A stretch of DNA of 42,891 bases, from the IMG/VR virus record IMGVR_UViG_644736362_000006. One strand, written 5' to 3'. This document shows, piece after piece, positions 1 through 18,651 of this stretch. This DNA comes from a virus. Its lineage: Duplodnaviria > Heunggongvirae > Uroviricota > Caudoviricetes. Both the position numbers and the translations under genes were made by a program. The notes beneath the pieces are model-generated. The model made no database searches, had not been told where the DNA came from, and worked only from the letters and a program-made list of their open reading frames with translations. Position 1 is the first letter of the stretch. Each line of letters begins with the position of its first letter.

Positions 1-591
1 TTATACGGCTTTTTTTACCTCCTGTGGTTCCTGTGAAGGTACTACAACACTTTCCTGTTCATGAATCCCATACTTTGACAAAATCTCTTTGCGTTTTTCT
101 TCAGGTAATGCATCTAGCATCATCAACGTCTGAATACTTTGCTGTGAAAATCCTATAAAGCTGTAAAGTTTCTGTTCATTAAATACAAGAGGCATTAACG
201 CCAACAACCCCCCTTTACTTAAAAGTTTCAGTGCCTTGCGTGCTTCATCTGGTTCCAGCTCTTCAATCATATTGATTAAGGTTGTGGTTAATTTGTTTAT
301 CAGTTCCGAAGAATCCTGTTTCTCATTGGCTTGAGCACCAGTATCCGGTGTGGATAACCCCAAGTGCGCAATAACTTGCTCTCGTTCTTTGGTGGGCATC
401 GACATCACATCGTATTCAACAGCTTTCCCCCCCTTGACACCTTCCTTTTTTTGCTTCGTCCAGCCTTGAACATTTGCTCGATAGTGAACACCAGCAACAG
501 ATCCAGGCATACCATCAGCAGCCATAATTTCTTGCGGCGAACACCAAATTGACTTTTCAGTATTATTCTTTTCTATAAAGTTACTTTTCAA
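1..591 (-). CDS. c: Phage Mu repressor c, complete 196 aa (stop codon at 1-3); codon 47 is Gln
   Basis: Minus-strand ORF translation MKSNFIEKNNTEKSIWCSPQEIMAADGMPG... recognised as Mu Repc; gene is divergent from ner as in the Mu left end. Confidence 0.9.
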   Translation of the reverse strand: MKSNFIEKNNTEKSIWCSPQEIMAADGMPGSVAGVHYRANVQGWTKQKKEGVKGGKAVEYDVMSMPTKEREQVIAHLGLSTPDTGAQANEKQDSSELINKLTTTLINMIEELEPDEARKALKLLSKGGLLALMPLVFNEQKLYSFIGFSQQSIQTLMMLDALPEEKRKEILSKYGIHEQESVVVPSQEPQEVKKAV

Positions 592-760
592 AATTTAAAC
601 TCCTTATTTATCAACGCGTTAATCAGTAATCAAAGGAATTTACCAAAAAGCAGCTTTACAAAAAGCTTTTCAGTAATTATCTTTTTAGTAAGCTAGCTAA
701 GTTTTTACACTTAGTTAAATTGCTAACTTTATAGATTACAAAACTTAGGAGGGTTTTTAA
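592..760. promoter_or_regulatory. Mu early operator/promoter region (O1-O3 with Pe and Pc, IHF site) between divergent c and ner
   Basis: AT-rich 170 bp divergent intergenic region between c and ner, with palindromic agctttacaaaaagctttt element; individual operator boundaries not resolved. Confidence 0.6.
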
Positions 761-988
761 ATGTGTTCCAACGAAAAGGCCCGTGATTGGCATCGTGCGG
801 ATGTGATTGCGGGACTTAAGAAAAGAAAGCTCTCTTTATCAGCTCTTTCCCGGCAGTTTGGTTATGCGCCAACTACATTAGCTAATGCGCTAGAACGACA
901 CTGGCCAAAGGGTGAGCAGATTATTGCTAACGCCTTAGAAACTAAACCGGAAGTAATCTGGCCTAGCCGATATCAAGCAGGTGAATAA
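761..988 (+). CDS. ner: Phage Mu Ner, early lytic regulator, 75 aa
   Basis: ORF translation [48 protein letters not shown]... recognised as Mu Ner. Confidence 0.92.
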
Positions 989-989
989 C

Positions 990-2798
990 ATGGAACTTTG
1001 GGTATCACCGAAAGAGTGTGCGAATCTTCCTGGTTTGCCGAAAACATCGGCTGGTGTGATTTATGTTGCTAAAAAGCAAGGATGGCAAAACCGCACTAGA
1101 GCAGGTGTCAAAGGTGGTAAAGCAATTGAATACAATGCGAACTCTTTACCTGTTGAAGCGAAAGCGGCGTTATTGCTGAGACAAGGAGAGATTGAAACAA
1201 GCCTGGGGTATTTTGAAATCGCCCGCCCCACGCTGGAAGCCCATGATTATGATCGTGAGGCACTGTGGAGCAAATGGGATAACGCCAGCGATTCCCAGCG
1301 CAGACTTGCTGAAAAATGGTTGCCTGCGGTTCAGGCTGCAGACGAAATGCTGAACCAGGGGATTTCAACGAAAACGGCTTTTGCGACCGTTGCAGGGCAT
1401 TACCAGGTCAGCGCATCCACTTTGCGGGACAAGTATTACCAGGTACAGAAGTTTGCGAAGCCTGACTGGGCGGCTGCACTTGTTGATGGACGTGGAGCAT
1501 CCCGTCGCAATGTTCACAAAAGTGAATTTGACGAGGATGCCTGGCAGTTTCTGATTGCAGATTATCTGCGACCGGAAAAACCCGCTTTCCGCAAATGTTA
1601 TGAGCGTCTGGAACTGGCAGCCCGCGAGCATGGCTGGAGTATTCCCTCCCGTGCCACGGCCTTTCGCCGGATTCAGCAACTGGACGAGGCAATGGTTGTT
1701 GCCTGTCGTGAAGGTGAACATGCACTGATGCATCTGATACCGGCACAGCAGCGAACTGTGGAACACCTGGACGCCATGCAGTGGATCAACGGCGACGGTT
1801 ATCTGCATAACGTCTTTGTACGCTGGTTTAACGGTGATGTGATCCGTCCGAAAACATGGTTCTGGCAGGATGTGAAAACCCGAAAAATTCTGGGCTGGCG
1901 CTGCGATGTGAGCGAGAACATTGATTCAATTCGCCTCTCGTTCATGGATGTTGTGACTCGCTACGGTATCCCGGAGGATTTTCACATCACCATTGATAAC
2001 ACCCGTGGTGCTGCGAATAAATGGCTGACGGGAGGCGCGCCCAATCGCTACCGCTTTAAGGTAAAAGAGGACGATCCAAAAGGACTGTTTTTACTGATGG
2101 GGGCGAAAATGCACTGGACAAGCGTTGTTGCCGGTAAAGGCTGGGGCCAGGCAAAACCTGTTGAACGTGCTTTCGGTGTTGGTGGGCTTGAGGAATACGT
2201 TGATAAGCATCCGGCACTGGCTGGCGCATATACGGGGCCAAATCCGTAGGCAAAACCTGATAACTATGGCGACCGCGCTGTTGATGCAGAGCTGTTTCTG
2301 AAAACCCTTGCCGAAGGTGTGGCGATGTTCAATGCCAGAACAGGCCGTGAAACAGAAATGTGCGGGGGCAAACTCTCGTTTGATGATGTTTTCGAGCGTG
2401 AATACGCCAGAACGATTGTGCGTAAGCCAACCGAAGAACAAAAACGGATGCTGTTACTGCCTGCCGAGGCGGTGAACGTTTCACGCAAAGGCGAGTTTAC
2501 GCTTAAAGTTGGCGGCTCCCTTAAAGGCGCGAAAAACGTTTATTACAACATGGCATTAATGAATGCCGGCGTGAAAAAAGTTGTGGTCAGGTTTGATCCG
2601 CAGCAGCTACACAGCACGGTTTATTGCTACACCCTGGACGGTCGGTTTATCTGTGAAGCGGAATGTCTGGCACCTGTTGCATTTAATGATGCTGCGGCAG
2701 GCCGTGAATATCGCCGCCGCCAGAAACAACTGAAATCTGCGACGAAAGCAGCCATTAAGGCGCAGAAACAAATGGACGCGCTGGAAGTTGCTGAACTG
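990..2798 (+). pseudogene. A: Phage Mu transposase A, 3'-truncated (A') and interrupted by an in-frame TAG at 2247-2249 (codon 420); lacks the C-terminal domain
   Basis: ATG at 990 gives [32 protein letters not shown]...; the 422-aa and 220-aa track ORFs are in the same frame separated only by TAG; Mu-like reading stops near 2796 where antisense lambda ea22 begins. Confidence 0.85.
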
Positions 2799-3209
2799 CT
2801 GCCGCAGAAACTCTTCCAGGTCACCAGTGCAGTGCTTGATAACAGGAGTCTTCCCAGGATGGCGAACAACAAGAAACTGGTTTCCGTCTTCACGGACTTC
2901 GTTGCTTTCCAGTTTAGCAATACGCTTACTCCCATCCGAGATAACACCTTCGTAATACTCACGCTGCTCGTTGAGTTTTGATTTTGCTGTTTCAAGCTCA
3001 ACACGCAGTTTCCCTACTGTTAGCGCAATATCCTCGTTCTCCTGGTCGCGGCGTTTGATGTATTGCTGGTTTCTTTCCCGTTCATCCAGCAGTTCCAGCA
3101 CAATCGATGGTGTTACCAATTCATGGAAAAGGTCTGCGTCAAATCCCCAGTCGTCATGCATTGCCTGCTCTGCCGCTTCACGCAGTGCCTGAGAGTTAAT
3201 TTCGCTCAC
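2797..3209 (-). CDS. ea22: Lambda Ea22, N-terminal about 138 codons only (3'-truncated at the Mu A' junction)
   Basis: Minus ORF begins [28 protein letters not shown]...; expected stop for a 182-aa Ea22 near 2661 is missing and the ORF runs into antisense Mu A. Confidence 0.7.
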
Positions 3210-3427
3210 TTCGAACCTCTCTGTTTACTGATAAGTTCCAGATCCTCCTGGCAACTTGCACAAGTCCGACAACCCTGAACGACCAGGCGTCTTCGTTCAT
3301 CTATCGGATCGCCACACTCACAACAATGAGTGGCAGATATAGCCTGGTGGTTCAGGCGGCGCATTTTTATTGCTGTGTTGCGCTGTAATTCTTCTATTTC
3401 TGATGCTGAATCAATGATGTCTGCCAT
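3206..3427 (-). CDS. Lambda Orf73, TraR/DksA-like C4 zinc-finger protein, 73 aa
   Basis: ORF with CxxC...CxxC spacing (CCECGDPIDERRRLVVQGCRTCASCQ); position immediately upstream of ea22. Confidence 0.75.
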   Translation of the reverse strand: MADIIDSASEIEELQRNTAIKMRRLNHQAISATHCCECGDPIDERRRLVVQGCRTCASCQEDLELISKQRGSK

Positions 3428-3652
3428 CTTTCATTAATCCCTGAACTGTTGGTTAATACGCTTGAGGGTGAATGCGAATAATAAAAAAGGAGCCTGTAGC
3501 TCCCTGATGATTTTGCTTTTCATGTTCATCGTTCCTTAAAGACGCCGTTTAACATGCCGATTGCCAGGCTTAAATGAGTCGGTGTGAATCCCATCAGCGT
3601 TACCGTTTCGCGGTGCTTCTTCAGTACGCTACGGCAAATGTCATCGACGTTT

Positions 3653-3838
3653 TTATCCGGAAACTGCTGTCTGGCTTTTTTTGATTTCAGAATTAGCCTG
3701 ACGGGCAATGCTGCGAAGGGCGTTTTCCTGCTGAGGTGTCATTGAACAAGTCCCATGTCGGCAAGCATAAGCACACAGAATATGAAGCCCGCTGCCAGAA
3801 AAATGCATTCCGTGGTTGTCATACCTGGTCTCTCTCAT
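3653..3838 (-). CDS. Lambda Orf61
   Basis: 61-aa ORF in expected position and orientation between ea22 and exo. Confidence 0.7.
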   Translation of the reverse strand: MRETRYDNHGMHFSGSGLHILCAYACRHGTCSMTPQQENALRSIARQANSEIKKSQTAVSG

Positions 3839-4010
3839 CTGCTTCTGCTTTCGCCACCATCATTTCCAGCTTTTGTGAAAGGGATGCGGCTAACGTATGA
3901 AATTCTTCGTCTGTTTCTACTGGTATTGGCACAAACCTGATTCCAATTTGAGCAAGGCTATGTGCCATCTCGATACTCGTTCTTAACTCAACAGAAGATG
4001 CTTTGTGCAT
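3819..4010 (-). CDS. Lambda Orf63
   Basis: 63-aa [26 protein letters not shown]... overlapping orf61 and orf60a as in lambda. Confidence 0.75.
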   Translation of the reverse strand: MHKASSVELRTSIEMAHSLAQIGIRFVPIPVETDEEFHTLAASLSQKLEMMVAKAEADERDQV

Positions 4011-4165
4011 ACAGCCCCTCGTTTATTATTTATCTCCTCAGCCAGCCGCTGTGCTTTCAGTGGATTTCGGATAACAGAAAGGCCGGGAAATACCCAGCCT
4101 CGCTTTGTAACGGAGTAGACGAAAGTGATTGCGCCTACCCGGATATTATCGTGAGGATGCGTCAT
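3983..4165 (-). CDS. Lambda Orf60a
   Basis: 60-aa ORF from the second Met of the track ORF, start overlapping the exo stop. Confidence 0.7.
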
Positions 4166-4842
4166 CGCCATTGCTCCCCAAATACAAAACCAATTTCAGC
4201 CAGTGCCTCGTCCATTTTTTCGATGAACTCCGGCACGATCTCGTCAAAACTCGCCATGTACTTTTCATCCCGCTCAATCACGACATAATGCAGGCCTTCA
4301 CGCTTCATACGCGGGTCATAGTTGGCAAAGTACCAGGCATTTTTTCGCGTCACCCACATGCTGTACTGCACCTGGGCCATGTAAGCTGACTTTATGGCCT
4401 CGAAACCACCGAGCCGGAACTTCATGAAATCCCGGGAGGTAAACGGGCATTTCAGTTCAAGGCCGTTGCCGTCACTGCATAAACCATCGGGAGAGCAGGC
4501 GGTACGCATACTTTCGTCGCGATAGATGATCGGGGATTCAGTAACATTCACGCCGGAAGTGAATTCAAACAGGGTTCTGGCGTCGTTCTCGTACTGTTTT
4601 CCCCAGGCCAGTGCTTTAGCGTTAACTTCCGGAGCCACACCGGTGCAAACCTCAGCAAGCAGGGTGTGGAAGTAGGACATTTTCATGTCAGGCCACTTCT
4701 TTCCGGAGCGGGGTTTTGCTATCACGTTGTGAACTTCTGAAGCGGTGATGACGCCGAGCCGTAATTTGTGCCACGCATCATCCCCCTGTTCGACAGCTCT
4801 CACATCGATCCCGGTACGCTGCAGGATAATGTCCGGTGTCAT
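4162..4842 (-). CDS. exo: Lambda exonuclease (Red alpha), 226 aa
   Basis: [68 protein letters not shown]... recognised as lambda Exo. Confidence 0.97.
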
Positions 4843-5624
4843 GCTGCCACCTTCTGCTCTGCGGCTTTCTGTTTCAGGAATCCAAGAGCTTTTACTGCTT
4901 CGGCCTGTGTCAGTTCTGACGATGCACGAATGTCGCGGCGAAATATCTGGGAACAGAGCGGCAATAAGTCGTCATCCCATGTTTTATCCAGGGCGATCAG
5001 CAGAGTGTTAATCTCCTGCATGGTTTCATCGTTAACCGGAGTGATGTCGCGTTCCGGCTGACGTTCTGCAGTGTATGCAGTATTTTCGACAATGCGCTCG
5101 GCTTCATCCTTGTCATAGATACCAGCAAATCCGAAGGCCAGACGGGCACACTGAATCATGGCTTTATGACGTAACATCCGTTTGGGATGCGACTGCCACG
5201 GCCCCGTGATTTCTCTGCCTTCGCGAGTTTTGAATGGTTCGCGGCGGCATTCATCCATCCATTCGGTAACGCAGATCGGATGATTACGGTCCTTGCGGTA
5301 AATCCGGCATGTACAGGATTCATTGTCCTGCTCAAAGTCCATGCCATCAAACTGCTGGTTTTCATTGATGATGCGGGACCAGCCATCAACGCCCACCACC
5401 GGAACGATGCCATTCTGCTTATCAGGAAAGGCGTAAATTTCTTTCGTCCACGGATTAAGGCCGTACTGGTTGGCAACGATCAGTAATGCGATGAACTGCG
5501 CATCGCTGGCATCACCTTTAAATGCCGTCTGGCGAAGAGTGGTGATCAGTTCCTGTGGGTCGACAGAATCCATGCCGACACGTTCAGCCAGCTTCCCAGC
5601 CAGCGTTGCGAGTGCAGTACTCAT
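4839..5624 (-). CDS. bet: Lambda Bet (Red beta) single-strand annealing protein, 261 aa
   Basis: [69 protein letters not shown]... recognised as lambda Bet. Confidence 0.97.
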
Positions 5625-5629
5625 TCGTT

Positions 5630-6046
5630 TTATACCTCTGAATCAATATCAACCTGGTGGTGAGCAATGGTTTCAACCATGTACCGGATGTGTTCTGCCA
5701 TGCGCTCCTGAAACTCAACATCGTCATCAAACGCACGGGTAATGGATTTTTTGCTGGCCCCGTGGCGTTGCAAATGATCGATGCATAGCGATTCAAACAG
5801 GTGCTGGGGCAGGCCTTTTTCCATGTCGTCTGCCAGTTCTGCCTCTTTCTCTTCACGGGCGAGCTGCTGGTAGTGACGCGCCCAGCTCTGAGCCTCAAGA
5901 CGATCCTGAATGTAATAAGCGTTCATGGCTGAACTCCTGAAATAGCTGTGAAAATATCGCCCGCGAAATGCCGGGCTGATTAGGAAAACAGGAAAGGGGG
6001 TTAGTGAATGCTTTTGCTTGATCTCAGTTTCAGTATTAATATCCAT
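5630..6046 (-). CDS. gam: Lambda Gam, RecBCD inhibitor, 138 aa
   Basis: [90 protein letters not shown]... recognised as lambda Gam. Confidence 0.97.
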
Positions 6047-6144
6047 TTTTTATAAGCGTCGACGGCTTCACGAAACATCTTTTCATCGCCAATAAAAGTG
6101 GCGATAGTGAATTTAGTCTGGATAGCCATAAGTGTTTGATCCAT
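6001..6144 (-). CDS. kil: Lambda Kil, 47 aa
   Basis: Internal Met of track ORF 6001..6270 gives [47 protein letters not shown]. Confidence 0.85.
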
Positions 6145-6277
6145 TCTTTGGGACTCCTGGCTGATTAAGTATGTCGATAAGGCGTTTCCATCCGTCACGT
6201 AATTTACGGGTGATTCGTTCAAGTAAAGATTCGGAAGGGCAGCCAGCAACAGGCCACCCTGCAATGGCATATTGCAT
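6113..6277 (-). CDS. cIII: Lambda CIII, 54 aa (below the ORF-track length cutoff)
   Basis: Reverse complement from 6277 reads ATGCAATATGCCATTGCAGGGTGGCCT... = [54 protein letters not shown], stop at 6113-6115. Confidence 0.9.
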   Translation of the reverse strand: MQYAIAGWPVAGCPSESLLERITRKLRDGWKRLIDILNQPGVPKNGSNTYGYPD

Positions 6278-6334
6278 GGTGTGCTCCTTATTTATACATA
6301 ACGAAAAACGCCTCGACCTGCAGGGGGGGGGGGG

Positions 6335-6560
6335 CGCTGAGGTCTGCCTCGTGAAGAAGGTGTTGCTGACTCATACCAGGCCTGAATCGCCCCATCATCC
6401 AGCCAGAAAGTGAGGGAGCCACGGTTGATGAGAGCTTTGTTGTAGGTGGACCAGTTGGTGATTTTGAACTTTTGCTTTGCCACGGAACGGTCTGCGTTGT
6501 CGGGAAGATGCGTGATCTGATCCTTCAACTCAGCAAAAGTTCGATTTATTCAACAAAGCC
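6335..6560 (-). mobile_element. IS903 end fragment: terminal inverted repeat (6543-6560) plus first ~65 codons of the transposase, truncated at the G tail
   Basis: Reverse complement of 6543-6560 is ggctttgttgaataaatc; minus ORF MKDQITHLPDNADRSVAKQKFKITNWSTYNKALINRGSLTFWLDDGAIQAWYE then runs into poly-G. Confidence 0.8.
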
Positions 6561-6620
6561 GCCGTCCCGTCAAGTCAGCGTAATGCTCTGCCAGTGTTAC
6601 AACCAATTAACCAATTCTGA

Positions 6621-7436
6621 TTAGAAAAACTCATCGAGCATCAAATGAAACTGCAATTTATTCATATCAGGATTATCAATACCATATTTTTGAAAAAGCC
6701 GTTTCTGTAATGAAGGAGAAAACTCACCGAGGCAGTTCCATAGGATGGCAAGATCCTGGTATCGGTCTGCGATTCCGACTCGTCCAACATCAATACAACC
6801 TATTAATTTCCCCTCGTCAAAAATAAGGTTATCAAGTGAGAAATCACCATGAGTGACGACTGAATCCGGTGAGAATGGCAAAAGCTTATGCATTTCTTTC
6901 CAGACTTGTTCAACAGGCCAGCCATTACGCTCGTCATCAAAATCACTCGCATCAACCAAACCGTTATTCATTCGTGATTGCGCCTGAGCGAGACGAAATA
7001 CGCGATCGCTGTTAAAAGGACAATTACAAACAGGAATCGAATGCAACCGGCGCAGGAACACTGCCAGCGCATCAACAATATTTTCACCTGAATCAGGATA
7101 TTCTTCTAATACCTGGAATGCTGTTTTCCCGGGGATCGCAGTGGTGAGTAACCATGCATCATCAGGAGTACGGATAAAATGCTTGATGGTCGGAAGAGGC
7201 ATAAATTCCGTCAGCCAGTTTAGTCTGACCATCTCATCTGTAACATCATTGGCAACGCTACCTTTGCCATGTTTCAGAAACAACTCTGGCGCATCGGGCT
7301 TCCCATACAATCGATAGATTGTCGCACCTGATTGCCCGACATTATCGCGAGCCCATTTATACCCATATAAATCAGCATCCATGTTGGAATTTAATCGCGG
7401 CCTCGAGCAAGACGTTTCCCGTTGAATATGGCTCAT
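6621..7436 (-). CDS. aph(3')-Ia: Aminoglycoside 3'-phosphotransferase APH(3')-Ia (kanamycin/neomycin resistance, Tn903 type), 271 aa
   Basis: ORF MSHIQRETSCSRPRLNSNMDADLYGYKWARDNVGQSGATIYRLYGKPDAPELFLKHGKGSVANDVTDEMVRLNWLTEFMPLPTIKHF... recognised as APH(3')-Ia. Confidence 0.97.
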   Translation of the reverse strand: MSHIQRETSCSRPRLNSNMDADLYGYKWARDNVGQSGATIYRLYGKPDAPELFLKHGKGSVANDVTDEMVRLNWLTEFMPLPTIKHFIRTPDDAWLLTTAIPGKTAFQVLEEYPDSGENIVDALAVFLRRLHSIPVCNCPFNSDRVFRLAQAQSRMNNGLVDASDFDDERNGWPVEQVWKEMHKLLPFSPDSVVTHGDFSLDNLIFDEGKLIGCIDVGRVGIADRYQDLAILWNCLGEFSPSLQKRLFQKYGIDNPDMNKLQFHLMLDEFF

Positions 7437-7599
7437 AACACCCCTTGTATTACTGTTTATGTAAGCAGACAGTTTTATTGTTCATGATGATATATTTTTA
7501 TCTTGTGCAATGTAACATCAGAGATTTTGAGACACAACGTGGCTTTCCCCCCCCCCTGCAGGTCGAGTGAAGCGTTATTGGTATGCGGTAAAACCGCAC

Positions 7600-7968
7600 T
7601 CAGGCGGCCTTGATAGTCATATCATCTGAATCAAATATTCCTGATGTATCGATATCGGTAATTCTTATTCCTTCGCTACCATCCATTGGAGGCCATCCTT
7701 CCTGACCATTTCCATCATTCCAGTCGAACTCACACACAACACCATATGCATTTAAGTCGCTTGAAATTGCTATAAGCAGAGCATGTTGCGCCAGCATGAT
7801 TAATACAGCATTTAATACAGAGCCGTGTTTATTGAGTCGGTATTCAGAGTCTGACCAGAAATTATTAATCTGGTGAAGTTTTTCCTCTGTCATTACGTCA
7901 TGGTCGATTTCAATTTCTATTGATGCTTTCCAGTCGTAATCAATGATGTATTTTTTGATGTTTGACAT
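7600..7968 (-). CDS. ea10: Lambda Ea10, 122 aa
   Basis: ORF MSNIKKYIIDYDWKASIEIEIDHDVMTEEKLHQINNFWSDSEYRLNKHGSVLNAVLIMLAQ... recognised as lambda Ea10. Confidence 0.9.
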   Translation of the reverse strand: MSNIKKYIIDYDWKASIEIEIDHDVMTEEKLHQINNFWSDSEYRLNKHGSVLNAVLIMLAQHALLIAISSDLNAYGVVCEFDWNDGNGQEGWPPMDGSEGIRITDIDTSGIFDSDDMTIKAA

Positions 7969-8150
7969 CTGTTCATATCCTCACAGATAAAAAATCGCCC
8001 TCACACTGGAGGGCAAAGAAGATTTCCAATAATCAGAACAAGTCGGCTCCTGTTTAGTTACGAGCGACATTGCTCCGTGTATTCACTCGTTGGAATGAAT
8101 ACACAGTGCAGTGTTTATTCTGTTATTTATGCCAAAAATAAAGGCCACTA

Positions 8151-8351
8151 TCAGGCAGCTTTGTTGTTCTGTTTACCAAGTTCTCTGGCAATCATTGCCG
8201 TCGTTCGTATTGCCCATTTATCGACATATTTCCCATCTTCCATTACAGGAAACATTTCTTCAGGCTTAACCATGCATTCCGATTGCAGCTTGCATCCATT
8301 GCATCGCTTGAATTGTCCACACCATTGATTTTTATCAATAGTCGTAGTCAT
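8151..8351 (-). CDS. ral: Lambda Ral, restriction alleviation, 66 aa
   Basis: ORF MTTTIDKNQWCGQFKRCNGCKLQSECMVKPEEMFPVMEDGKYVDKWAIRTTAMIARELGKQNNKAA. Confidence 0.92.
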   Translation of the reverse strand: MTTTIDKNQWCGQFKRCNGCKLQSECMVKPEEMFPVMEDGKYVDKWAIRTTAMIARELGKQNNKAA

Positions 8352-8545
8352 ACGGATAGTCCTGGTATTGTTCCATCACATCCTGAGGATGCTCTTCGAA
8401 CTCTTCAAATTCTTCTTCCATATATCACCTTAAATAGTGGATTGCGGTAGTAAAGATTGTGCCTGTCTTTTAACCACATCAGGCTCGGTGGTTCTCGTGT
8501 ACCCCTACAGCGAGAAATCGGATAAACTATTACAACCCCTACAGT

Positions 8546-9100
8546 TTGATGAGTATAGAAATGGATCCACTCGTTATTCTCGGACGAGTGTTCAGTAATG
8601 AACCTCTGGAGAGAACCATGTATATGATCGTTATCTGGGTTGGACTTCTGCTTTTAAGCCCAGATAACTGGCCTGAATATGTTAATGAGAGAATCGGTAT
8701 TCCTCATGTGTGGCATGTTTTCGTCTTTGCTCTTGCATTTTCGCTAGCAATTAATGTGCATCGATTATCAGCTATTGCCAGCGCCAGATATAAGCGATTT
8801 AAGCTAAGAAAACGCATTAAGATGCAAAACGATAAAGTGCGATCAGTAATTCAAAACCTTACAGAAGAGCAATCTATGGTTTTGTGCGCAGCCCTTAATG
8901 AAGGCAGGAAGTATGTGGTTACATCAAAACAATTCCCATACATTAGTGAGTTGATTGAGCTTGGTGTGTTGAACAAAACTTTTTCCCGATGGAATGGGAA
9001 GCATATATTATTCCCTATTGAGGATATTTACTGGACTGAATTAGTTGCCAGCTATGATCCATATAATATTGAGATAAAGCCAAGGCCAATATCTAAGTAA
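8546..9100 (+). CDS. sieB: Lambda SieB, superinfection exclusion protein
   Basis: ORF MMSIEMDPLVILGRVFSNEPLERTMYMIVIWVGLLLLSPDNWPEYVNERIGIPHVWHVFVFALAF..., on the strand opposite N as in lambda. Confidence 0.9.
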   Translation: MMSIEMDPLVILGRVFSNEPLERTMYMIVIWVGLLLLSPDNWPEYVNERIGIPHVWHVFVFALAFSLAINVHRLSAIASARYKRFKLRKRIKMQNDKVRSVIQNLTEEQSMVLCAALNEGRKYVVTSKQFPYISELIELGVLNKTFSRWNGKHILFPIEDIYWTELVASYDPYNIEIKPRPISK

Positions 9101-9424
9101 CTAGATAAGAGGAATCGATTTTCCCTTAATTTTCTGGCGTCCACTGCATGTTATGCCGCGTTCGCCAGGCTTGCTGTACCATGTGCGCTGATTCTTGCGC
9201 TCAATACGTTGCAGGTTGCTTTCAATCTGTTTGTGGTATTCAGCCAGCACTGTAAGGTCTATCGGATTTAGTGCGCTTTCTACTCGTGATTTCGGTTTGC
9301 GATTCAGCGAGAGAATAGGGCGGTTAACTGGTTTTGCGCTTACCCCAACCAACAGGGGATTTGCTGCTTTCCATTGAGCCTGTTTCTCTGCGCGACGTTC
9401 GCGGCGGCGTGTTTGTGCATCCAT
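9101..9424 (-). CDS. N: Lambda N antiterminator, 107 aa
   Basis: Internal Met of track ORF gives MDAQTRRRERRAEKQAQWKAANPLLVGVSAKPVNRPILSLNRKPKSRVESALNPIDLTVLAEYHKQIESNLQRIERKNQRTWYSKPGERGITCSGRQKIKGKSIPLI. Confidence 0.95.
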   Translation of the reverse strand: MDAQTRRRERRAEKQAQWKAANPLLVGVSAKPVNRPILSLNRKPKSRVESALNPIDLTVLAEYHKQIESNLQRIERKNQRTWYSKPGERGITCSGRQKIKGKSIPLI

Positions 9425-9574
9425 CTGGATTCTCCTGTCAGTTAGCTTTGGTGGTGTGTGGCAGTTGTAGTCCTGAACGAAAACCCCCCGCGATTGGCAC
9501 ATTGGCAGCTAATCCGGAATCGCACTTACGGCCAATGCTTCGTTTCGTATCACACACCCCAAAGCCTTCTGCTT

Positions 9575-9614
9575 TGAATGCTGCCCTTCTTCAGGGCTTA
9601 ATTTTTAAGAGCGT
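9575..9614 (-). promoter_or_regulatory. nutL (boxA and boxB) N-utilisation site
   Basis: Minus strand contains boxB hairpin gccctgaagaagggc (9578-9594) and boxA cgctcttaa (9606-9614). Confidence 0.85.
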
Positions 9615-9645
9615 CACCTTCATGGTGGTCAGTGCGTCCTGCTGA

Positions 9646-9715
9646 TGTGCTCAGTATCACCGCCAGTGGTATTTATGTCAACACCGCCAGAGATAATTTA
9701 TCACCGCAGATGGTT
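9646..9715 (-). promoter_or_regulatory. pL promoter with operators oL1 (9655-9671), oL2 (9679-9695), oL3 (9699-9715)
   Basis: 17-bp operator sequences tatcaccgccagtggta, caacaccgccagagata, tatcaccgcagatggtt; -35 TTGACA and -10 GATACT on minus strand. Confidence 0.9.
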
Positions 9716-9888
9716 ATCTGTATGTTTTTTATATGAATTTATTTTTTGCAGGGGGGCATTGTTTGGTAGGTGAGAGATCTGAATTGCTATGTTTAGTGAG
9801 TTGTATCTATTTATTTTTCAATAAATACAATTGGTTATGTGTTTTGGGGGCGATCGTGAGGCAAAGAAAACCCGGCGCTGAGGCCGGG

Positions 9889-10323
9889 TTATTCTTGTTC
9901 TCTGGTCAAATTATATAGTTGGAAAACAAGGATGCATATATGAATGAACGATGCAGAGGCAATGCCGATGGCGATAGTGGGTATCATGTAGCCGCTTATG
10001 CTGGAAAGAAGCAATAACCCGCAGAAAAACAAAGCTCCAAGCTCAACAAAACTAAGGGCATAGACAATAACTACCGATGTCATATACCCATACTCTCTAA
10101 TCTTGGCCAGTCGGCGCGTTCTGCTTCCGATTAGAAACGTCAAGGCAGCAATCAGGATTGCAATCATGGTTCCTGCATATGATGACAATGTCGCCCCAAG
10201 ACCATCTCTATGAGCTGAAAAAGAAACACCAGGAATGTAGTGGCGGAAAAGGAGATAGCAAATGCTTACGATAACGTAAGGAATTATTACTATGTAAACA
10301 CCAGGCATGATTCTGTTCCGCAT
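9889..10323 (-). CDS. rexB: Lambda RexB, 144 aa membrane protein
   Basis: ORF MRNRIMPGVYIVIIPYVIVSICYLLFRHYIPGVSFSAHRDGLGATLSSYAGTMIAILIAALTF... Confidence 0.95.
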   Translation of the reverse strand: MRNRIMPGVYIVIIPYVIVSICYLLFRHYIPGVSFSAHRDGLGATLSSYAGTMIAILIAALTFLIGSRTRRLAKIREYGYMTSVVIVYALSFVELGALFFCGLLLLSSISGYMIPTIAIGIASASFIHICILVFQLYNLTREQE

Positions 10324-10338
10324 AATTACTCCTGATAA

Positions 10339-11178
10339 TTAATCCTTAACTTTGCCCACCTGCCTTTTAAAACATTCCAGTATATCACTTTTCATTCTTG
10401 CGTAGCAATATGCCATCTCTTCAGCTATCTCAGCATTGGTGACCTTGTTCAGAGGCGCTGAGAGATGGCCTTTTTCTGATAGATAATGTTCTGTTAAAAT
10501 ATCTCCGGCCTCATCTTTTGCCCGCAGGCTAATGTCTGAAAATTGAGGTGACGGGTTAAAAATAATATCCTTGGCAACCTTTTTTATATCCCTTTTAAAT
10601 TTTGGCTTAATGACTATATCCAATGAGTCAAAAAGCTCCCCTTCAATATCTGTTGCCCCTAAGACCTTTAATATATCGCCAAATACAGGTAGCTTGGCTT
10701 CTACCTTCACCGTTGTTCGGCCGATGAAATGCATATGCATAACATCGTCTTTGGTGGTTCCCCTCATCAGTGGCTCTATCTGAACGCGCTCTCCACTGCT
10801 TAATGACATTCCTTTCCCGATTAAAAAATCTGTCAGATCGGATGTGGTCGGCCCGAAAACAGTTCTGGCAAAACCAATGGTGTCGCCTTCAACAAACAAA
10901 AAAGATGGGAATCCCAATGATTCGTCATCTGCGAGGCTGTTCTTAATATCTTCAACTGAAGCTTTAGAGCGATTTATCTTCTGAACCAGACTCTTGTCAT
11001 TTGTTTTGGTAAAGAGAAAAGTTTTTCCATCGATTTTATGAATATACAAATAATTGGAGCCAACCTGCAGGTGATGATTATCAGCCAGCAGAGAATTAAG
11101 GAAAACAGACAGGTTTATTGAGCGCTTATCTTTCCCTTTATTTTTGCTGCGGTAAGTCGCATAAAAACCATTCTTCAT
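10339..11178 (-). CDS. rexA: Lambda RexA, 279 aa
   Basis: ORF MKNGFYATYRSKNKGKDKRSINLSVFLNSLLADNHHLQVGSNYLYIHKIDGKTFLFTKTNDKSLVQKINRSKASVEDIKN... Confidence 0.95.
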   Translation of the reverse strand: MKNGFYATYRSKNKGKDKRSINLSVFLNSLLADNHHLQVGSNYLYIHKIDGKTFLFTKTNDKSLVQKINRSKASVEDIKNSLADDESLGFPSFLFVEGDTIGFARTVFGPTTSDLTDFLIGKGMSLSSGERVQIEPLMRGTTKDDVMHMHFIGRTTVKVEAKLPVFGDILKVLGATDIEGELFDSLDIVIKPKFKRDIKKVAKDIIFNPSPQFSDISLRAKDEAGDILTEHYLSEKGHLSAPLNKVTNAEIAEEMAYCYARMKSDILECFKRQVGKVKD

Positions 11179-11290
11179 AATTCAATCCATTTACTATGTT
11201 ATGTTCTGAGGGGAGTGAAAATTCCCCTAATTCGATGAAGATTCTTGCTCAATTGTTATCAGCTATGCGCCGACCAGAACACCTTGCCGA

Positions 11291-12007
<717 letters not shown>

Positions 12008-12014
12008 TTAAATC

Positions 12015-12090
12015 TATCACCGCAAGGGATAAATATCTAACACCGTGCGTGTTGACTATTTTACCTCTGGCGGTGATAATGGTTGCATGT
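12015..12090. promoter_or_regulatory. oR3-oR2-oR1 operators with divergent pRM and pR promoters
   Basis: tatcaccgcaagggata (12015-12031), taacaccgtgcgtgttg (12038-12054), tacctctggcggtgata (12062-12078); pR -35 ttgact and -10 gataat. Confidence 0.92.
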
Positions 12091-12095
12091 ACTAA

Positions 12096-12305
<210 letters not shown>

Positions 12306-12312
12306 ATAACCC

Positions 12313-12344
12313 CGCTCTTACACATTCCAGCCCTGAAAAAGGGC
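12313..12344 (+). promoter_or_regulatory. nutR (boxA cgctctta, boxB gccctgaaaaagggc)
   Basis: boxA at 12313-12320 and boxB hairpin at 12330-12344 immediately downstream of cro. Confidence 0.88.
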
Positions 12345-12404
12345 ATCAAATTAAACCACACCTATGGTGTATGCATTTATTTGCATACATTCAATCAATT
12401 GTTA

Positions 12405-12445
12405 TCTAAGGAAATACTTACATATGGTTCGTGCAAACAAACGCA
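12405..12445 (-). promoter_or_regulatory. pRE promoter with CII binding site (TTGC-N6-TTGC) overlapping the cII start
   Basis: Minus strand ttgcgtttgtttgc at 12432-12445, inside the first cII codons. Confidence 0.7.
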
Positions 12446-12717
12446 ACGAGGCTCTACGAATCGAGAGTGCGTTGCTTAACAAAATCGCAATGCTTGGAAC
12501 TGAGAAGACAGCGGAAGCTGTGGGCGTTGATAAGTCGCAGATCAGCAGGTGGAAGAGGGACTGGATTCCAAAGTTCTCAATGCTGCTTGCTGTTCTTGAA
12601 TGGGGGGTCGTTGACGACGACATGGCTCGATTGGCGCGACAAGTTGCTGCGATTCTCACCAATAAAAAACGCCCGGCGGCAACCGAGCGTTCTGAACAAA
12701 TCCAGATGGAGTTCTGA
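12424..12717 (+). CDS. cII: Lambda CII transcriptional activator, 97 aa
   Basis: Internal Met of track ORF gives MVRANKRNEALRIESALLNKIAMLGTEKTAEAVGVDKSQISRWKRDWIPKFSMLLAVLEWGVVDDDMARLARQVAAILTNKKRPAATERSEQIQMEF. Confidence 0.95.
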   Translation: MVRANKRNEALRIESALLNKIAMLGTEKTAEAVGVDKSQISRWKRDWIPKFSMLLAVLEWGVVDDDMARLARQVAAILTNKKRPAATERSEQIQMEF

Positions 12718-12739
12718 GGTCATTACTGGATCTATCAAC
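12663..12739 (-). ncRNA. oop: oop antisense RNA (about 77 nt) ending at the to terminator
   Basis: Minus-strand GC hairpin followed by T run (reverse complement of aataaaaaacgcccggcggcaacc at 12661-12684), located between cII 3' end and O start; ends placed from remembered lambda coordinates. Confidence 0.6.
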
Positions 12740-12749
12740 AGGAGTCATT

Positions 12750-13649
12750 ATGACAAATACAGCAAAAATACTCAACTTCGGCAGAGGTAACTTTGCCGGA
12801 CAGGAGCGTAATGTGGCAGATCTCGATGATGGTTACGCCAGACTATCAAATATGCTGCTTGAGGCTTATTCGGGCGCAGATCTGACCAAGCGACAGTTTA
12901 AAGTGCTGCTTGCCATTCTGCGTAAAACCTATGGGTGGAATAAACCAATGGACAGAATCACCGATTCTCAACTTAGCGAGATTACAAAGTTACCTGTCAA
13001 ACGGTGCAATGAAGCCAAGTTAGAACTCGTCAGAATGAATATTATCAAGCAGCAAGGCGGCATGTTTGGACCAAATAAAAACATCTCAGAATGGTGCATC
13101 CCTCAAAACGAGGGAAAATCCCCTAAAACGAGGGATAAAACATCCCTCAAATTGGGGGATTGCTATCCCTCAAAACAGGGGGACACAAAAGACACTATTA
13201 CAAAAGAAAAAAGAAAAGATTATTCGTCAGAGAATTCTGGCGAATCCTCTGACCAGCCAGAAAACGACCTTTCTGTGGTGAAACCGGATGCTGCAATTCA
13301 GAGCGGCAGCAAGTGGGGGACAGCAGAAGACCTGACCGCCGCAGAGTGGATGTTTGACATGGTGAAGACTATCGCACCATCAGCCAGAAAACCGAATTTT
13401 GCTGGGTGGGCTAACGATATCCGCCTGATGCGTGAACGTGACGGACGTAACCACCGCGACATGTGTGTGCTGTTCCGCTGGGCATGCCAGGACAACTTCT
13501 GGTCCGGTAACGTGCTGAGCCCGGCCAAACTCCGCGATAAGTGGACCCAACTCGAAATCAACCGTAACAAGCAACAGGCAGGCGTGACAGCCAGCAAACC
13601 AAAACTCGACCTGACAAACACAGACTGGATTTACGGGGTGGATCTATGA
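12750..13649 (+). CDS. O: Lambda O replication initiator, 299 aa
   Basis: ORF MTNTAKILNFGRGNFAGQERNVADLDDGYARLSNMLLEAYSGADLTKRQFKVLLAILRKTYGWNKPMDRITDSQLSEITKLPVKRCNEAK... Confidence 0.97.
   Translation: MTNTAKILNFGRGNFAGQERNVADLDDGYARLSNMLLEAYSGADLTKRQFKVLLAILRKTYGWNKPMDRITDSQLSEITKLPVKRCNEAKLELVRMNIIKQQGGMFGPNKNISEWCIPQNEGKSPKTRDKTSLKLGDCYPSKQGDTKDTITKEKRKDYSSENSGESSDQPENDLSVVKPDAAIQSGSKWGTAEDLTAAEWMFDMVKTIAPSARKPNFAGWANDIRLMRERDGRNHRDMCVLFRWACQDNFWSGNVLSPAKLRDKWTQLEINRNKQQAGVTASKPKLDLTNTDWIYGVDL
13098..13230. other. ori lambda: four ~19-bp O-binding iterons followed by an AT-rich unwinding region
   Basis: Repeats catccctcaaaacgaggga / aatcccctaaaacgagggat / catccctcaaattgggggat / tatccctcaaaacaggggga, then A-rich tract aaaagaaaaaagaaaag. 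Confidence 0.9.
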
Positions 13650-14347
13650 AAAACATCGCCGCACAGATGGTTAACTTTGACCGTGAGCAGATGCGTCGGA
13701 TCGCCAACAACATGCCGGAACAGTACGACGAAAAGCCGCAGGTACAGCAGGTAGCGCAGATCATCAACGGTGTGTTCAGCCAGTTACTGGCAACTTTCCC
13801 GGCGAGCCTGGCTAACCGTGACCAGAACGAAGTGAACGAAATCCGTCGCCAGTGGGTTCTGGCTTTTCGGGAAAACGGGATCACCACGATGGAACAGGTT
13901 AACGCAGGAATGCGCGTAGCCCGTCGGCAGAATCGACCATTTCTGCCATCACCCGGGCAGTTTGTTGCATGGTGCCGGGAAGAAGCATCCGTTACCGCCG
14001 GACTGCCAAACGTCAGCGAGCTGGTTGATATGGTTTACGAGTATTGCCGGAAGCGAGGCCTGTATCCGGATGCGGAGTCTTATCCGTGGAAATCAAACGC
14101 GCACTACTGGCTGGTTACCAACCTGTATCAGAACATGCGGGCCAATGCGCTTACTGATGCGGAATTACGCCGTAAGGCCGCAGATGAGCTTGTCCATATG
14201 ACTGCGAGAATTAACCGTGGTGAGGCGATCCCTGAACCAGTAAAACAACTTCCTGTCATGGGCGGTAGACCTCTAAATCGTGCACAGGCTCTGGCGAAGA
14301 TCGCAGAAATCAAAGCTAAGTTCGGACTGAAAGGAGCAAGTGTATGA
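13646..14347 (+). CDS. P: Lambda P helicase loader, 233 aa
   Basis: ORF MKNIAAQMVNFDREQMRRIANNMPEQYDEKPQVQQVAQIINGVFSQLLATFPASLANRDQNEVNEIRRQWVLAFRENGITTMEQVN... Confidence 0.97.
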   Translation: MKNIAAQMVNFDREQMRRIANNMPEQYDEKPQVQQVAQIINGVFSQLLATFPASLANRDQNEVNEIRRQWVLAFRENGITTMEQVNAGMRVARRQNRPFLPSPGQFVAWCREEASVTAGLPNVSELVDMVYEYCRKRGLYPDAESYPWKSNAHYWLVTNLYQNMRANALTDAELRRKAADELVHMTARINRGEAIPEPVKQLPVMGGRPLNRAQALAKIAEIKAKFGLKGASV

Positions 14348-14634
14348 CGGGCAAAGAGGCAATTATTCATTACCTGGGGACGCATAATAGCTTCTGTGCG
14401 CCGGACGTTGCCGCGCTAACAGGCGCAACAGTAACCAGCATAAATCAGGCCGCGGCTAAAATGGCACGGGCAGGTCTTCTGGTTATCGAAGGTAAGGTCT
14501 GGCGAACGGTGTATTACCGGTTTGCTACCAGGGAAGAACGGGAAGGAAAGATGAGCACGAACCTGGTTTTTAAGGAGTGTCGCCAGAGTGCCGCGATGAA
14601 ACGGGTATTGGCGGTATATGGAGTTAAAAGATGA
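14344..14634 (+). CDS. ren: Lambda Ren, 96 aa
   Basis: ORF MTGKEAIIHYLGTHNSFCAPDVAALTGATVTSINQAAAKMARAGLLVIEGKVWRTVYYRFATREEREGK... Confidence 0.92.
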   Translation: MTGKEAIIHYLGTHNSFCAPDVAALTGATVTSINQAAAKMARAGLLVIEGKVWRTVYYRFATREEREGKMSTNLVFKECRQSAAMKRVLAVYGVKR

Positions 14635-14707
14635 CCATCTACATTACTGAGCTAATAACAGGCCTGCTGGTAATCGCAGGCCTTTTTATTTGGGGGAGAG
14701 GGAAGTC

Positions 14708-15148
14708 ATGAAAAAACTAACCTTTGAAATTCGATCTCCAGCACATCAGCAAAACGCTATTCACGCAGTACAGCAAATCCTTCCAGACCCAACCAAACCA
14801 ATCGTAGTAACCATTCAGGAACGCAACCGCAGCTTAGACCAAAACAGGAAGCTATGGGCCTGCTTAGGTGACGTCTCTCGTCAGGTTGAATGGCATGGTC
14901 GCTGGCTGGATGCAGAAAGCTGGAAGTGTGTGTTTACCGCAGCATTAAAGCAGCAGGATGTTGTTCCTAACCTTGCCGGGAATGGCTTTGTGGTAATAGG
15001 CCAGTCAACCAGCAGGATGCGTGTAGGCGAATTTGCGGAGCTATTAGAGCTTATACAGGCATTCGGTACAGAGCGTGGCGTTAAGTGGTCAGACGAAGCG
15101 AGACTGGCTCTGGAGTGGAAAGCGAGATGGGGAGACAGGGCTGCATGA
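14708..15148 (+). CDS. ninB: Lambda NinB (Orf recombination mediator), 146 aa
   Basis: Internal Met gives MKKLTFEIRSPAHQQNAIHAVQQILPDPTKPIVVTIQERNRSLDQNRKLWACLGDV... Confidence 0.92.
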   Translation: MKKLTFEIRSPAHQQNAIHAVQQILPDPTKPIVVTIQERNRSLDQNRKLWACLGDVSRQVEWHGRWLDAESWKCVFTAALKQQDVVPNLAGNGFVVIGQSTSRMRVGEFAELLELIQAFGTERGVKWSDEARLALEWKARWGDRAA

Positions 15149-16017
15149 TAAATGTCGTTAGTTTCTCCGGTGGCAGGACGTCAGCATATTTGCTCTGGCT
15201 AATGGAGCAAAAGCGACGGGCAGGTAAAGACGTGCATTACGTTTTCATGGATACAGGTTGTGAACATCCAATGACATATCGGTTTGTCAGGGAAGTTGTG
15301 AAGTTCTGGGATATACCGCTCACCGTATTGCAGGTTGATATCAACCCGGAGCTTGGACAGCCAAATGGTTATACGGTATGGGAACCAAAGGATATTCAGA
15401 CGCGAATGCCTGTTCTGAAGCCATTTATCGATATGGTAAAGAAATATGGCACTCCATACGTCGGCGGCGCGTTCTGCACTGACAGATTAAAACTCGTTCC
15501 CTTCACCAAATACTGTGATGACCATTTCGGGCGAGGGAATTACACCACGTGGATTGGCATCAGAGCTGATGAACCGAAGCGGCTAAAGCCAAAGCCTGGA
15601 ATCAGATATCTTGCTGAACTGTCAGACTTTGAGAAGGAAGATATCCTCGCATGGTGGAAGCAACAACCATTCGATTTGCAAATACCGGAACATCTCGGTA
15701 ACTGCATATTCTGCATTAAAAAATCAACGCAAAAAATCGGACTTGCCTGCAAAGATGAGGAGGGATTGCAGCGTGTTTTTAATGAGGTCATCACGGGATC
15801 CCATGTGCGTGACGGACATCGGGAAACGCCAAAGGAGATTATGTACCGAGGAAGAATGTCGCTGGACGGTATCGCGAAAATGTATTCAGAAAATGATTAT
15901 CAAGCCCTGTATCAGGACATGGTACGAGCTAAAAGATTCGATACCGGCTCTTGTTCTGAGTCATGCGAAATATTTGGAGGGCAGCTTGATTTCGACTTCG
16001 GGAGGGAAGCTGCATGA
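15145..16017 (+). CDS. ninC: Lambda NinC, 290 aa
   Basis: Internal Met gives [65 protein letters not shown]... Confidence 0.92.
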
Positions 16018-16187
16018 TGCGATGTTATCGGTGCGGTGAATGCAAAGAAGATAACCGCTTCCGACCAAATCAACCTTACTGGAATCGATGGTGTCTCCGG
16101 TGTGAAAGAACACCAACAGGGGTGTTACCACTACCGCAGGAAAAGGAGGACGTGTGGCGAGACAGCGACGAAGTATCACCGACATAA
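16014..16187 (+). CDS. ninD: Lambda NinD, 57 aa cysteine-rich protein (below ORF-track cutoff)
   Basis: Manual translation from ATG at 16014: [57 protein letters not shown], stop at 16185-16187. Confidence 0.8.
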
Positions 16188-16336
16188 TCTGCGAAAACTG
16201 CAAATACCTTCCAACGAAACGCACCAGAAATAAACCCAAGCCAATCCCAAAAGAATCTGACGTAAAAACCTTCAACTACACGGCTCACCTGTGGGATATC
16301 CGGTGGCTAAGACGTCGTGCGAGGAAAACAAGGTGA
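16154..16336 (+). CDS. ninE: Lambda NinE, 60 aa
   Basis: [63 protein letters not shown]. Confidence 0.85.
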
Positions 16337-16503
16337 TTGACCAAAATCGAAGTTACGAACAAGAAAGCGTCGAGCGAGCTTTAACGTGCGCTAACTGCGG
16401 TCAGAAGCTGCATGTGCTGGAAGTTCACGTGTGTGAGCACTGCTGCGCAGAACTGATGAGCGATCCGAATAGCTCGATGCACGAGGAAGAAGATGATGGC
16501 TAA
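16333..16503 (+). CDS. ninF: Lambda NinF; start uncertain (GTG at 16333 overlapping the ninE stop, or upstream ATG at 16291)
   Basis: Cysteine-rich ORF ...[55 protein letters not shown]. Confidence 0.7.
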
Positions 16504-17107
16504 ACCAGCGCGAAGACGATGTAAAAACGATGAATGCCGGGAATGGTTTCACCCTGCATTCGCTAATCAGTGGTGGTGCTCTCCAGAGTGTGGAACCAAG
16601 ATAGCACTCGAACGACGAAGTAAAGAACGCGAAAAAGCGGAAAAAGCAGCAGAGAAGAAACGACGACGAGAGGAGCAGAAACAGAAAGATAAACTTAAGA
16701 TTCGAAAACTCGCCTTAAAGCCCCGCAGTTACTGGATTAAACAAGCCCAACAAGCCGTAAACGCCTTCATCAGAGAAAGAGACCGCGACTTACCATGTAT
16801 CTCGTGCGGAACGCTCACGTCTGCTCAGTGGGATGCCGGACATTACCGGACAACTGCTGCGGCACCTCAACTCCGATTTAATGAACGCAATATTCACAAG
16901 CAATGCGTGGTGTGCAACCAGCACAAAAGCGGAAATCTCGTTCCGTATCGCGTCGAACTGATTAGCCGCATCGGGCAGGAAGCAGTAGACGAAATCGAAT
17001 CAAACCATAACCGCCATCGCTGGACTATCGAAGAGTGCAAGGCGATCAAGGCAGAGTACCAACAGAAACTCAAAGACCTGCGAAATAGCAGAAGTGAGGC
17101 CGCATGA
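16493..17107 (+). CDS. ninG: Lambda NinG (Rap), 204 aa
   Basis: [70 protein letters not shown]... Confidence 0.92.
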
Positions 17108-17310
17108 CGTTCTCAGTAAAAACCATTCCAGACATGCTCGTTGAAGCATACGGAAATCAGACAGAAGTAGCACGCAGACTGAAATGTAGTCGCGGTACGG
17201 TCAGAAAATACGTTGATGATAAAGACGGGAAAATGCACGCCATCGTCAACGACGTTCTCATGGTTCATCGCGGATGGAGTGAAAGAGATGCGCTATTACG
17301 AAAAAATTGA
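17104..17310 (+). CDS. ninH: Lambda NinH, 68 aa
   Basis: [71 protein letters not shown]. Confidence 0.9.
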
Positions 17311-17953
17311 TGGCAGCAAATACCGAAATATTTGGGTAGTTGGCGATCTGCACGGATGCTACACGAACCTGATGAACAAACTGGATACGATTGGATTCGA
17401 CAACAAAAAAGACCTGCTTATCTCGGTGGGCGATTTGGTTGATCGTGGTGCAGAGAACGTTGAATGCCTGGAATTAATCACATTCCCCTGGTTCAGAGCT
17501 GTACGTGGAAACCATGAGCAAATGATGATTGATGGCTTATCAGAGCGTGGAAACGTTAATCACTGGCTGCTTAATGGCGGTGGCTGGTTCTTTAATCTCG
17601 ATTACGACAAAGAAATTCTGGCTAAAGCTCTTGCCCATAAAGCAGATGAACTTCCGTTAATCATCGAACTGGTGAGCAAAGATAAAAAATATGTTATCTG
17701 CCACGCCGATTATCCCTTTGACGAATACGAGTTTGGAAAGCCAGTTGATCATCAGCAGGTAATCTGGAACCGCGAACGAATCAGCAACTCACAAAACGGG
17801 ATCGTGAAAGAAATCAAAGGCGCGGACACGTTCATCTTTGGTCATACGCCAGCAGTGAAACCACTCAAGTTTGCCAACCAAATGTATATCGATACCGGCG
17901 CAGTGTTCTGCGGAAACCTAACATTGATTCAGGTACAGGGAGAAGGCGCATGA
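17288..17953 (+). CDS. ninI: Lambda NinI Ser/Thr protein phosphatase, 221 aa
   Basis: Internal Met gives [63 protein letters not shown]... with GDLHG and GNHE phosphoesterase motifs. Confidence 0.92.
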
Positions 17954-18573
17954 GACTCGAAAGCGTAGCTAAATTTCATTCGCCAAAAAGCCCGATGATG
18001 AGCGACTCACCACGGGCCACGGCTTCTGACTCTCTTTCCGGTACTGATGTGATGGCTGCTATGGGGATGGCGCAATCACAAGCCGGATTCGGTATGGCTG
18101 CATTCTGCGGTAAGCACGAACTCAGCCAGAACGACAAACAAAAGGCTATCAACTATCTGATGCAATTTGCACACAAGGTATCGGGGAAATACCGTGGTGT
18201 GGCAAAGCTTGAAGGAAATACTAAGGCAAAGGTACTGCAAGTGCTCGCAACATTCGCTTATGCGGATTATTGCCGTAGTGCCGCGACGCCGGGGGCAAGA
18301 TGCAGAGATTGCCATGGTACAGGCCGTGCGGTTGATATTGCCAAAACAGAGCTGTGGGGGAGAGTTGTCGAGAAAGAGTGCGGAAGATGCAAAGGCGTCG
18401 GCTATTCAAGGATGCCAGCAAGCGCAGCATATCGCGCTGTGACGATGCTAATCCCAAACCTTACCCAACCCACCTGGTCACGCACTGTTAAGCCGCTGTA
18501 TGACGCTCTGGTGGTGCAATGCCACAAAGAAGAGTCAATCGCAGACAACATTTTGAATGCGGTCACACGTTAG
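17950..18573 (+). CDS. Q: Lambda Q late antiterminator, 207 aa
   Basis: [89 protein letters not shown]... Confidence 0.97.
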
Positions 18574-18644: not shown

Positions 18645-18651
18645 TGACTCA

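Follow-up and report, generated by a model that had tools for sequence, protein, structure and literature searches.

A probable cts62 allele (Gln47) of the Mu repressor gene c in the Mu arm of a λplacMu55 prophage

The repressor of bacteriophage Mu, the product of gene c, binds operators in the c-ner region; it thereby silences the early promoter and competes with the MuA transposase for the enhancer. A number of cts, sts and vir alleles are known for this gene. Among the thermosensitive ones, cts62 is reportedly the substitution R47Q, cts25 D43G and cts71 M28I, assignments said to go back to Vogel et al. (1991 and 1996). The λplacMu phages are transposable λ phages for the construction of lacZ fusions. 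As reportedly described by Bremer, Silhavy and Weinstock in 1984/1985, they comprise the c end of Mu with cIts62, ner and A, a kanamycin-resistance determinant (kan) between cIII and ssb, and a lac segment adjoining the S end of Mu. The Gln47 allele and its phenotype have long been known, as has the λplacMu vector, and all have served as standard genetic tools since the 1970s and 1980s.

The window, i.e. the whole analysed stretch of 42,891 nucleotides, begins with a c gene whose origin can be assigned from sequence comparisons with high confidence. It is very probably the Mu repressor gene with a single G to A transition in the coding strand (window position 452), which changes Arg47 (CGA) to Gln (CAA), and represents the allele of Mu cts62 and of the constructs built from it, here placed within a λplacMu55 prophage.

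Gene c and its codon 47

The c gene occupies positions 1..591 on the minus strand. Its open reading frame of 196 codons starts with TTG at position 591, ends with a stop codon at positions 1-3, and its translation begins with MKSNFIEKNNTEKSIWCSPQEIMAADGMPGSVAGVHYRANVQGWTKQKKEG... The gene is 100 % identical to positions 339-929 of AF083977, annotated as 'repressor protein c', and the first 1000 positions of the window are 100 % identical to positions 339-1338 of this complete Mu genome (AF083977/NC_000929). The gene is that of Mu itself and not a repressor gene of the D108/SfMu type. The NCBI name of the identical Gln47 protein is 'MULTISPECIES: MerR family transcriptional regulator [Pseudomonadota]'.

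Codon 47 lies at positions 451..453 on the minus strand, where it is read from 453 to 451 as CAA (ttg on the plus strand), so the first-pass annotation was correct as written in placing a Gln codon here. The mutated base is position 452, T on the plus strand and A in the codon. The numbering refers to the 196-residue form of AF083977 (CDS 339..929) and agrees with that of the PDB construct, in which repressor residues 13-81 are numbered 1-69 in the chain. In V01464 and M64097 a shorter CDS of 174 residues is annotated, and the same position is there residue 25.

Residues 13-81 near the N-terminus form a winged-helix domain that binds DNA, and within it residue 47 is a position at which Arg is strongly conserved. 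This position belongs to the motif G-W-x-[KR]-R-x-[KR]-x-G-V-K-G, common to the repressor and the enhancer-binding domain of MuA. The N-terminal domain of the window c product matched the PDB entries 1G4D (E = 2.4e-41) and 1TNS (E = 2.9e-12), and PF02316 (HTH_Tnp_Mu_1) is the precomputed Pfam family for the protein identical to it. No NCBIfam model matched either c or the MuA fragment encoded in the window.

The c-ner intergenic control region, the site of repressor action with the operators and divergent promoters, extends over positions 592..760. Its sequence is identical to the reference and its features were placed by transferring the coordinates of the AF083977 annotation. The ribosome-binding site of c (Mu 938-942) falls at window positions 600-604, and the early-promoter features (Mu 991-1028 and 1063-1101) at 653-690 and 725-763, respectively.

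Arg47 in non-engineered Mu and the name of the allele

The GenBank records of Mu (AF083977/NC_000929, V01464 and M64097) all encode Gln47 and carry no note on it, which could be taken to mean that Gln47 is the wild-type sequence of Mu or a neutral natural polymorphism. However, NC_000929 has been labelled 'Mu cts62' (PMC4406740), and the GenBank records apparently carry Gln47 because they were derived from Mu cts62. The alignment to Mu c proposed in the first-pass annotation gave two kinds of answer. Against the GenBank records it yielded zero differences in c and was uninformative since these records are themselves cts62; for this reason their use as the wild type was rejected. Against the non-engineered Mu prophages it yielded one difference, at codon 47. 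The label 'C-62' in M64097 was considered as a pointer to cts62 and rejected, as it is the name of a 62-codon open reading frame on the plus strand (window 364-552).

The non-engineered prophages represent two independent lineages, one of E. coli W and B-766 and the other of S17-1 and ST18 (RP4-2-Tc::Mu). In the latter, Mu adjoins a disrupted MFS transporter gene, while E. coli W has been reported as a carrier of a Mu prophage (PMC3032704). Over window positions 1-2808 exactly two bases differ from the prophages of E. coli W and S17-1, at 452 and 2247, both T in the window and C in the prophages. The first makes codon 47 of c CAA (Gln) in the window vs CGA (Arg) in the prophages, and the second makes codon 420 of the MuA gene TAG (amber) vs CAG. 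The base equivalent to position 452 is C in all four strains, E. coli W, B-766, S17-1 and ST18. Two differences in 2808 bases, one of them a missense change at a conserved Arg and the other a nonsense change in the transposase gene, are more than a chance pattern. Both are G:C to A:T transitions with presumably drastic effects, and they resemble selected laboratory mutations rather than drift.

Arginine at this position, encoded by CGG, was also found in the prophage of E. coli MIN10, more diverged with 18 differences from the window, and in Yersinia phage vB_YpM_3. The solved DNA-binding domain of the Mu repressor (PDB 1G4D/1QPM) has Arg47 and is otherwise identical to the window protein over residues 13-81. 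When 5.8 billion protein clusters formed at 90 % identity were searched, Gln47 was limited to the exact laboratory sequence and two variants 99 % identical to it. All 18 other homologues covering the position, with 41-98 % identity, had Arg, so that Arg occurs in every repressor homologue outside the laboratory cluster of 99-100 % identity. Among 61 aligned proteins, representatives of clusters formed at 50 % identity, Arg was present at the aligned position in 52.

Gln was present there in four of the 61, all distant relatives and two of them MuA-like transposases of about 660 aa, and these could speak for Gln47 as a natural variant. P0067, P0083 and P0070 are distant relatives with a natural Gln at the position aligned to residue 47 (W-x-K-Q-Q). 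The occurrence of natural Gln in a few distant relatives indicates that this residue is tolerated in them and that the fold as such can accommodate it.

The exact Gln47 protein was found on 91 contigs, and codon 47 was CAA in all nine genomic contexts that were read. Whether a context was engineered was judged from its gene content and not from the records. The nine comprised the λplacMu prophage of BW2952, two contigs with lacZYA and a Tn5-type aph adjoining c (MudJ-like), three contigs on which an IncP-type plasmid backbone (TraX, TrbM, KfrB) encloses c, a 3.2-Mb contig with a similar IncP-type/c fragment, a unit of c and ner in a derivative of E. coli W and one complete Mu early region. These mostly engineered-looking surroundings fit a laboratory allele that has been spread by genetic tools. 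The E. coli W derivative, CP104206.1, gave two matches, one of them a full-length Mu region. The separate unit at 4230957-4243547, located beside flagellar genes, contains the Gln47 c gene and ner without A, and it is presumably an engineered mini-Mu integration.

The view that Gln47 is wild-type or a neutral polymorphism, although it finds the residue in every GenBank Mu record and in a few distant relatives, is thus very unlikely in the face of the 'Mu cts62' description of the reference, the Arg codons of the non-engineered prophages and Mu-like phages, the Arg of the PDB construct and of the homologues, and the mostly engineered-looking contexts of the exact protein. The first-pass annotation had given Arg47 as the wild-type residue and had proposed a CGA to CAA transition; both are borne out, by the CGA codon of the W/B-766 and S17-1/ST18 prophages and the Arg of 1G4D/1QPM in the first case, and in the second by this transition being the sole difference in c. 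It had also named Gln47 in wild-type Mu c as a finding that would overturn its reading, and the non-engineered prophages carry Arg47.

A sequencing or assembly error at position 452 could likewise account for a single-base difference from the non-engineered prophages. Its probability is negligible, as the same base is present in the independent records V01464, M64097, AF083977 and BW2952 and in eight further contigs from different projects. Finally, the repressor might carry another temperature-sensitive or virulent allele (a different cts mutation, or a C-terminal frameshift or truncation of the sts or vir type), Gln47 being incidental, but this explanation is refuted by the one-difference comparison: codon 47 is the sole difference between this c gene and the alleles of E. 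coli W and S17-1, there is no second change, and the C-terminus is full length and identical to theirs.

The single Arg47 to Gln transition is therefore left as the lesion of this c gene. Its identification with cts62 follows if the 'Mu cts62' label of NC_000929 is right and the non-engineered prophages are not thermoinducible: since c of NC_000929 differs from c of these prophages solely at codon 47, the cts62 lesion would then be that base. The equation of R47Q with cts62 in the first-pass annotation is supported indirectly by this label together with the single difference. A full-text literature search, with the primary allele papers outside its coverage, found no statement of the cts62 substitution.

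The reference genome of Mu thus seems to carry the cts62 mutation unannotated, and a sequence with Arg47, for instance that of the E. coli W prophage or of PDB 1G4D, is the one to choose for comparisons with 'wild-type Mu'. We consider it somewhat probable that the CAA47 base is a one-nucleotide marker of laboratory-derived Mu DNA in general. If so, a CAA in place of CGA or CGG at this codon would serve in genomes and metagenomes as a sign of engineered or contaminating DNA, and the RefSeq Mu reference would be silently spreading a mutant repressor as the wild type.

The prophage surrounding c

Beyond the control region the window contains Mu ner (positions 761..988, plus strand), a 75-aa open reading frame equal to AF083977 1099-1326, and then the first 419 codons of the transposase gene A (990..2249, plus strand). 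The A reading frame is ended by the amber codon TAG at 2247-2249, which is CAG in AF083977 as well as in the W and S17-1 prophages. BW2952 has a gene call of 419 residues at the place of this fragment. The amber codon 420 is probably the A amber mutation of the λplacMu series, which may be Aam1093; no paper placing the codon of Aam1093 was found in the literature search. The remaining, truncated A' sequence extends over 2250..2808 (plus strand) and ends at about codon 607 of 663, window 1-2808 corresponding in blastn to Mu 339-3146.

The novel joint between Mu and λ lies at positions 2799..2808. The ten bases CTGCCGCAGA are common to Mu 3137-3146 and to λ 29985-29994, located inside λ ea22, and both the MuA gene (at about codon 607) and ea22 are cut short by the joint. 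Illegitimate recombination or a deletion mediated by microhomology seems a likelier origin for it than a ligation of restriction sites. The open reading frame that fuses A' to λ (2319-2981) has 220 aa in the window vs 218 aa in the gene call for this region in BW2952. An exact-product look-up of the fusion product gave no match, and no record with the joint was found in the RefSeq collection of complete E. coli genomes.

From the joint onwards the sequence is that of λ. The segment at 2799..6316 corresponds to λ 29985-33502 (ea22' through exo, bet, gam, kil and cIII) with 99.97 % identity. It is followed at 6317..7562 on the minus strand by a kanamycin-resistance cassette of 1246 bp, with PstI sites and G/C homopolymer tails. 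Its open reading frame at 6621-7436 encodes an APH(3')-Ia of the Tn903 type (649.9 bits with the NCBIfam model NF051474 vs a cut-off of 625). The cassette interrupts λ at 33498-33502, an XhoI site, between cIII (33299-33463) and ea10 (33536-33904). At its left junction CTCGA is followed directly by CCTGCAGGGGG..., and at its right junction ...CCCCCTGCAGG is followed directly by TCGAG, to give hybrid sites CTCGAC and GTCGAG with TCGA overlaps. The cassette is presumably a pUC4K-type SalI fragment inserted into the unique XhoI site of λ, between cIII and ea10 (ssb).

On the other side of the cassette, positions 7563..22566 correspond to λ 33499-48502 (ea10, N, rexBA, cI+, cro, O, P, the nin region, Q, S+, R, Rz, bor and the right cos end). 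In λ cI the stretches ALLAKIL and SPELRTF are wild type, and S is without an amber codon. Positions 22567..42565 on the plus strand correspond to λ 1-19998 (nu1 through J, lom and the start of orf-401). The 5' part of lacA, encoding galactoside O-acetyltransferase, is joined directly to λ 19998 inside orf-401 and occupies the last 326 bases of the window (42566..42891, minus strand) as the start of the λplacMu lac segment. It encodes the N-terminal 108 residues of LacA and matched NCBIfam NF007076 at profile positions 3-110 of 203 (E = 3.9e-71).

The λ backbone shows some further departures from the reference. In window 21049-22550 (λ 46985-48486) 28 SNPs are clustered, so that the identity to NC_001416, DE3 and K-12 λ is 98.3 %, and the same stretch is 99.9 % identical to the ybcV-ybcW-ylcI region of the K-12 cryptic prophage DLP12. 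This points to a patch at the right end of λ that was seemingly acquired by recombination with the host cryptic prophage during the history of the phage. Single-base indels relative to NC_001416 are present at window 22704, 36832 and 37452 (λ 138, 14267 and 14886, respectively). Those near λ 14267 and 14886 flank gene K, whose open reading frame (36698-37441) encodes 247 aa vs 199 aa of the reference K. The three indels may be either corrections of the old reference or real strain differences.

The exact c protein led to E. coli BW2952 (CP001396.1), which is 100 % identical to the window over positions 1-6591, the range of the comparison. In BW2952 an intact Mu attL of 338 bp (Mu 1-338) lies directly to the left of the point where the window starts and is followed by malG. 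The strain has been described as MC4100 malG::λplacMu55 Φ(malG::lacZ), kanamycin resistant (PMC3708739). At one end of the λ genome in the window the c end of Mu, comprising c, ner and A sequences, points outward, the arrangement that characterizes λplacMu phages. A full Mu prophage, a mini-Mu or MudJ element and RP4::Mu were rejected as contexts of this c gene, as the Mu homology ends at position 2808 and λ follows.

The window starts exactly at the stop codon of c and ends exactly at the ATG of lacA (MPMTERIRAG...), and it was seemingly cut at gene boundaries. The Mu attL as well as the lacY-lacZ-Mu S end are situated outside it. Since the lacZ end and the S end of Mu are not covered, the window alone is equally compatible with the protein-fusion and operon-fusion types of the phage.

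The suggestion that this DNA is a laboratory derivative of Mu cts62 can be retained in one part: it is a laboratory construct with a cts62-type c gene, marked by λ, kan and lacA'. It is not a derivative of Mu but λplacMu55, a nearly complete λ genome with a c-end fragment of Mu. In annotation the window should be classed as an engineered λplacMu55 fusion prophage like that of BW2952, and neither as a natural Mu nor as a natural λ prophage. Natural variation should not be read into its Mu/λ joint, the amber codon in A, the kan cassette or lacA'.

Role of the allele and comparison with known systems

In accordance with established Mu biology, the Gln47 repressor would bind the c-ner operators at 30-37 °C and shut off the early promoter. 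At about 42 °C it would lose DNA binding, and in an intact Mu cts62 prophage this would turn on ner, A and B and lead to lytic transposition. Here the gene lies in that arm of a λplacMu55 prophage which carries the c end of Mu, in the order attL-c-ner-A', λ with kan, and lacA onwards, inserted in malG of BW2952 (a derivative of MC4100) or present in an identical construct. MuA is inactivated twice in it, by the amber mutation at codon 420 and by the truncation at about codon 607, where it joins λ ea22, with the loss of the sequence beyond approximately residue 606, and MuB is absent. Heating would then probably derepress solely ner and two inactive A fragments. With MuA doubly defective and MuB absent, the heat-sensitive allele, inherited from the Mu cts62 parent, appears to be a passenger with no bearing on the stability of the insertion, and the insertion itself would be stable. 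A helper phage providing MuA and MuB is used in making such fusions, which matches a defective A and a missing B.

Four described systems are close to this locus. The c gene of Mu cts62 (AF083977) does not differ from that of the window in any base, codon 47 (CAA) included, whereas of the Mu cts62 genome the window contains only positions 339-3146, joined to λ instead of to the remaining Mu sequence. The repressor WP_000840061.1 of the E. coli W and S17-1 prophages has 195 of 196 residues in common with the window protein and differs in Arg47 (CGA) vs Gln47 (CAA). The enhancer-binding domain Iα of MuA (PDB 1TNS/1TNT) is a homologous winged-helix with Arg at the position aligned to residue 47, but it belongs to a transposase paralogue of about 40 % identity and not to a repressor. 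The λplacMu55 prophage of BW2952 has the same gene order as the window, c, ner, the 419-aa A fragment, the second A fragment and the λ genes. The kan cassette between cIII and ea10 and the lac segment beyond the J side of λ are likewise shared with λplacMu55; of the Mu sequence, BW2952 carries positions 1-3146 and the window 339-3146.
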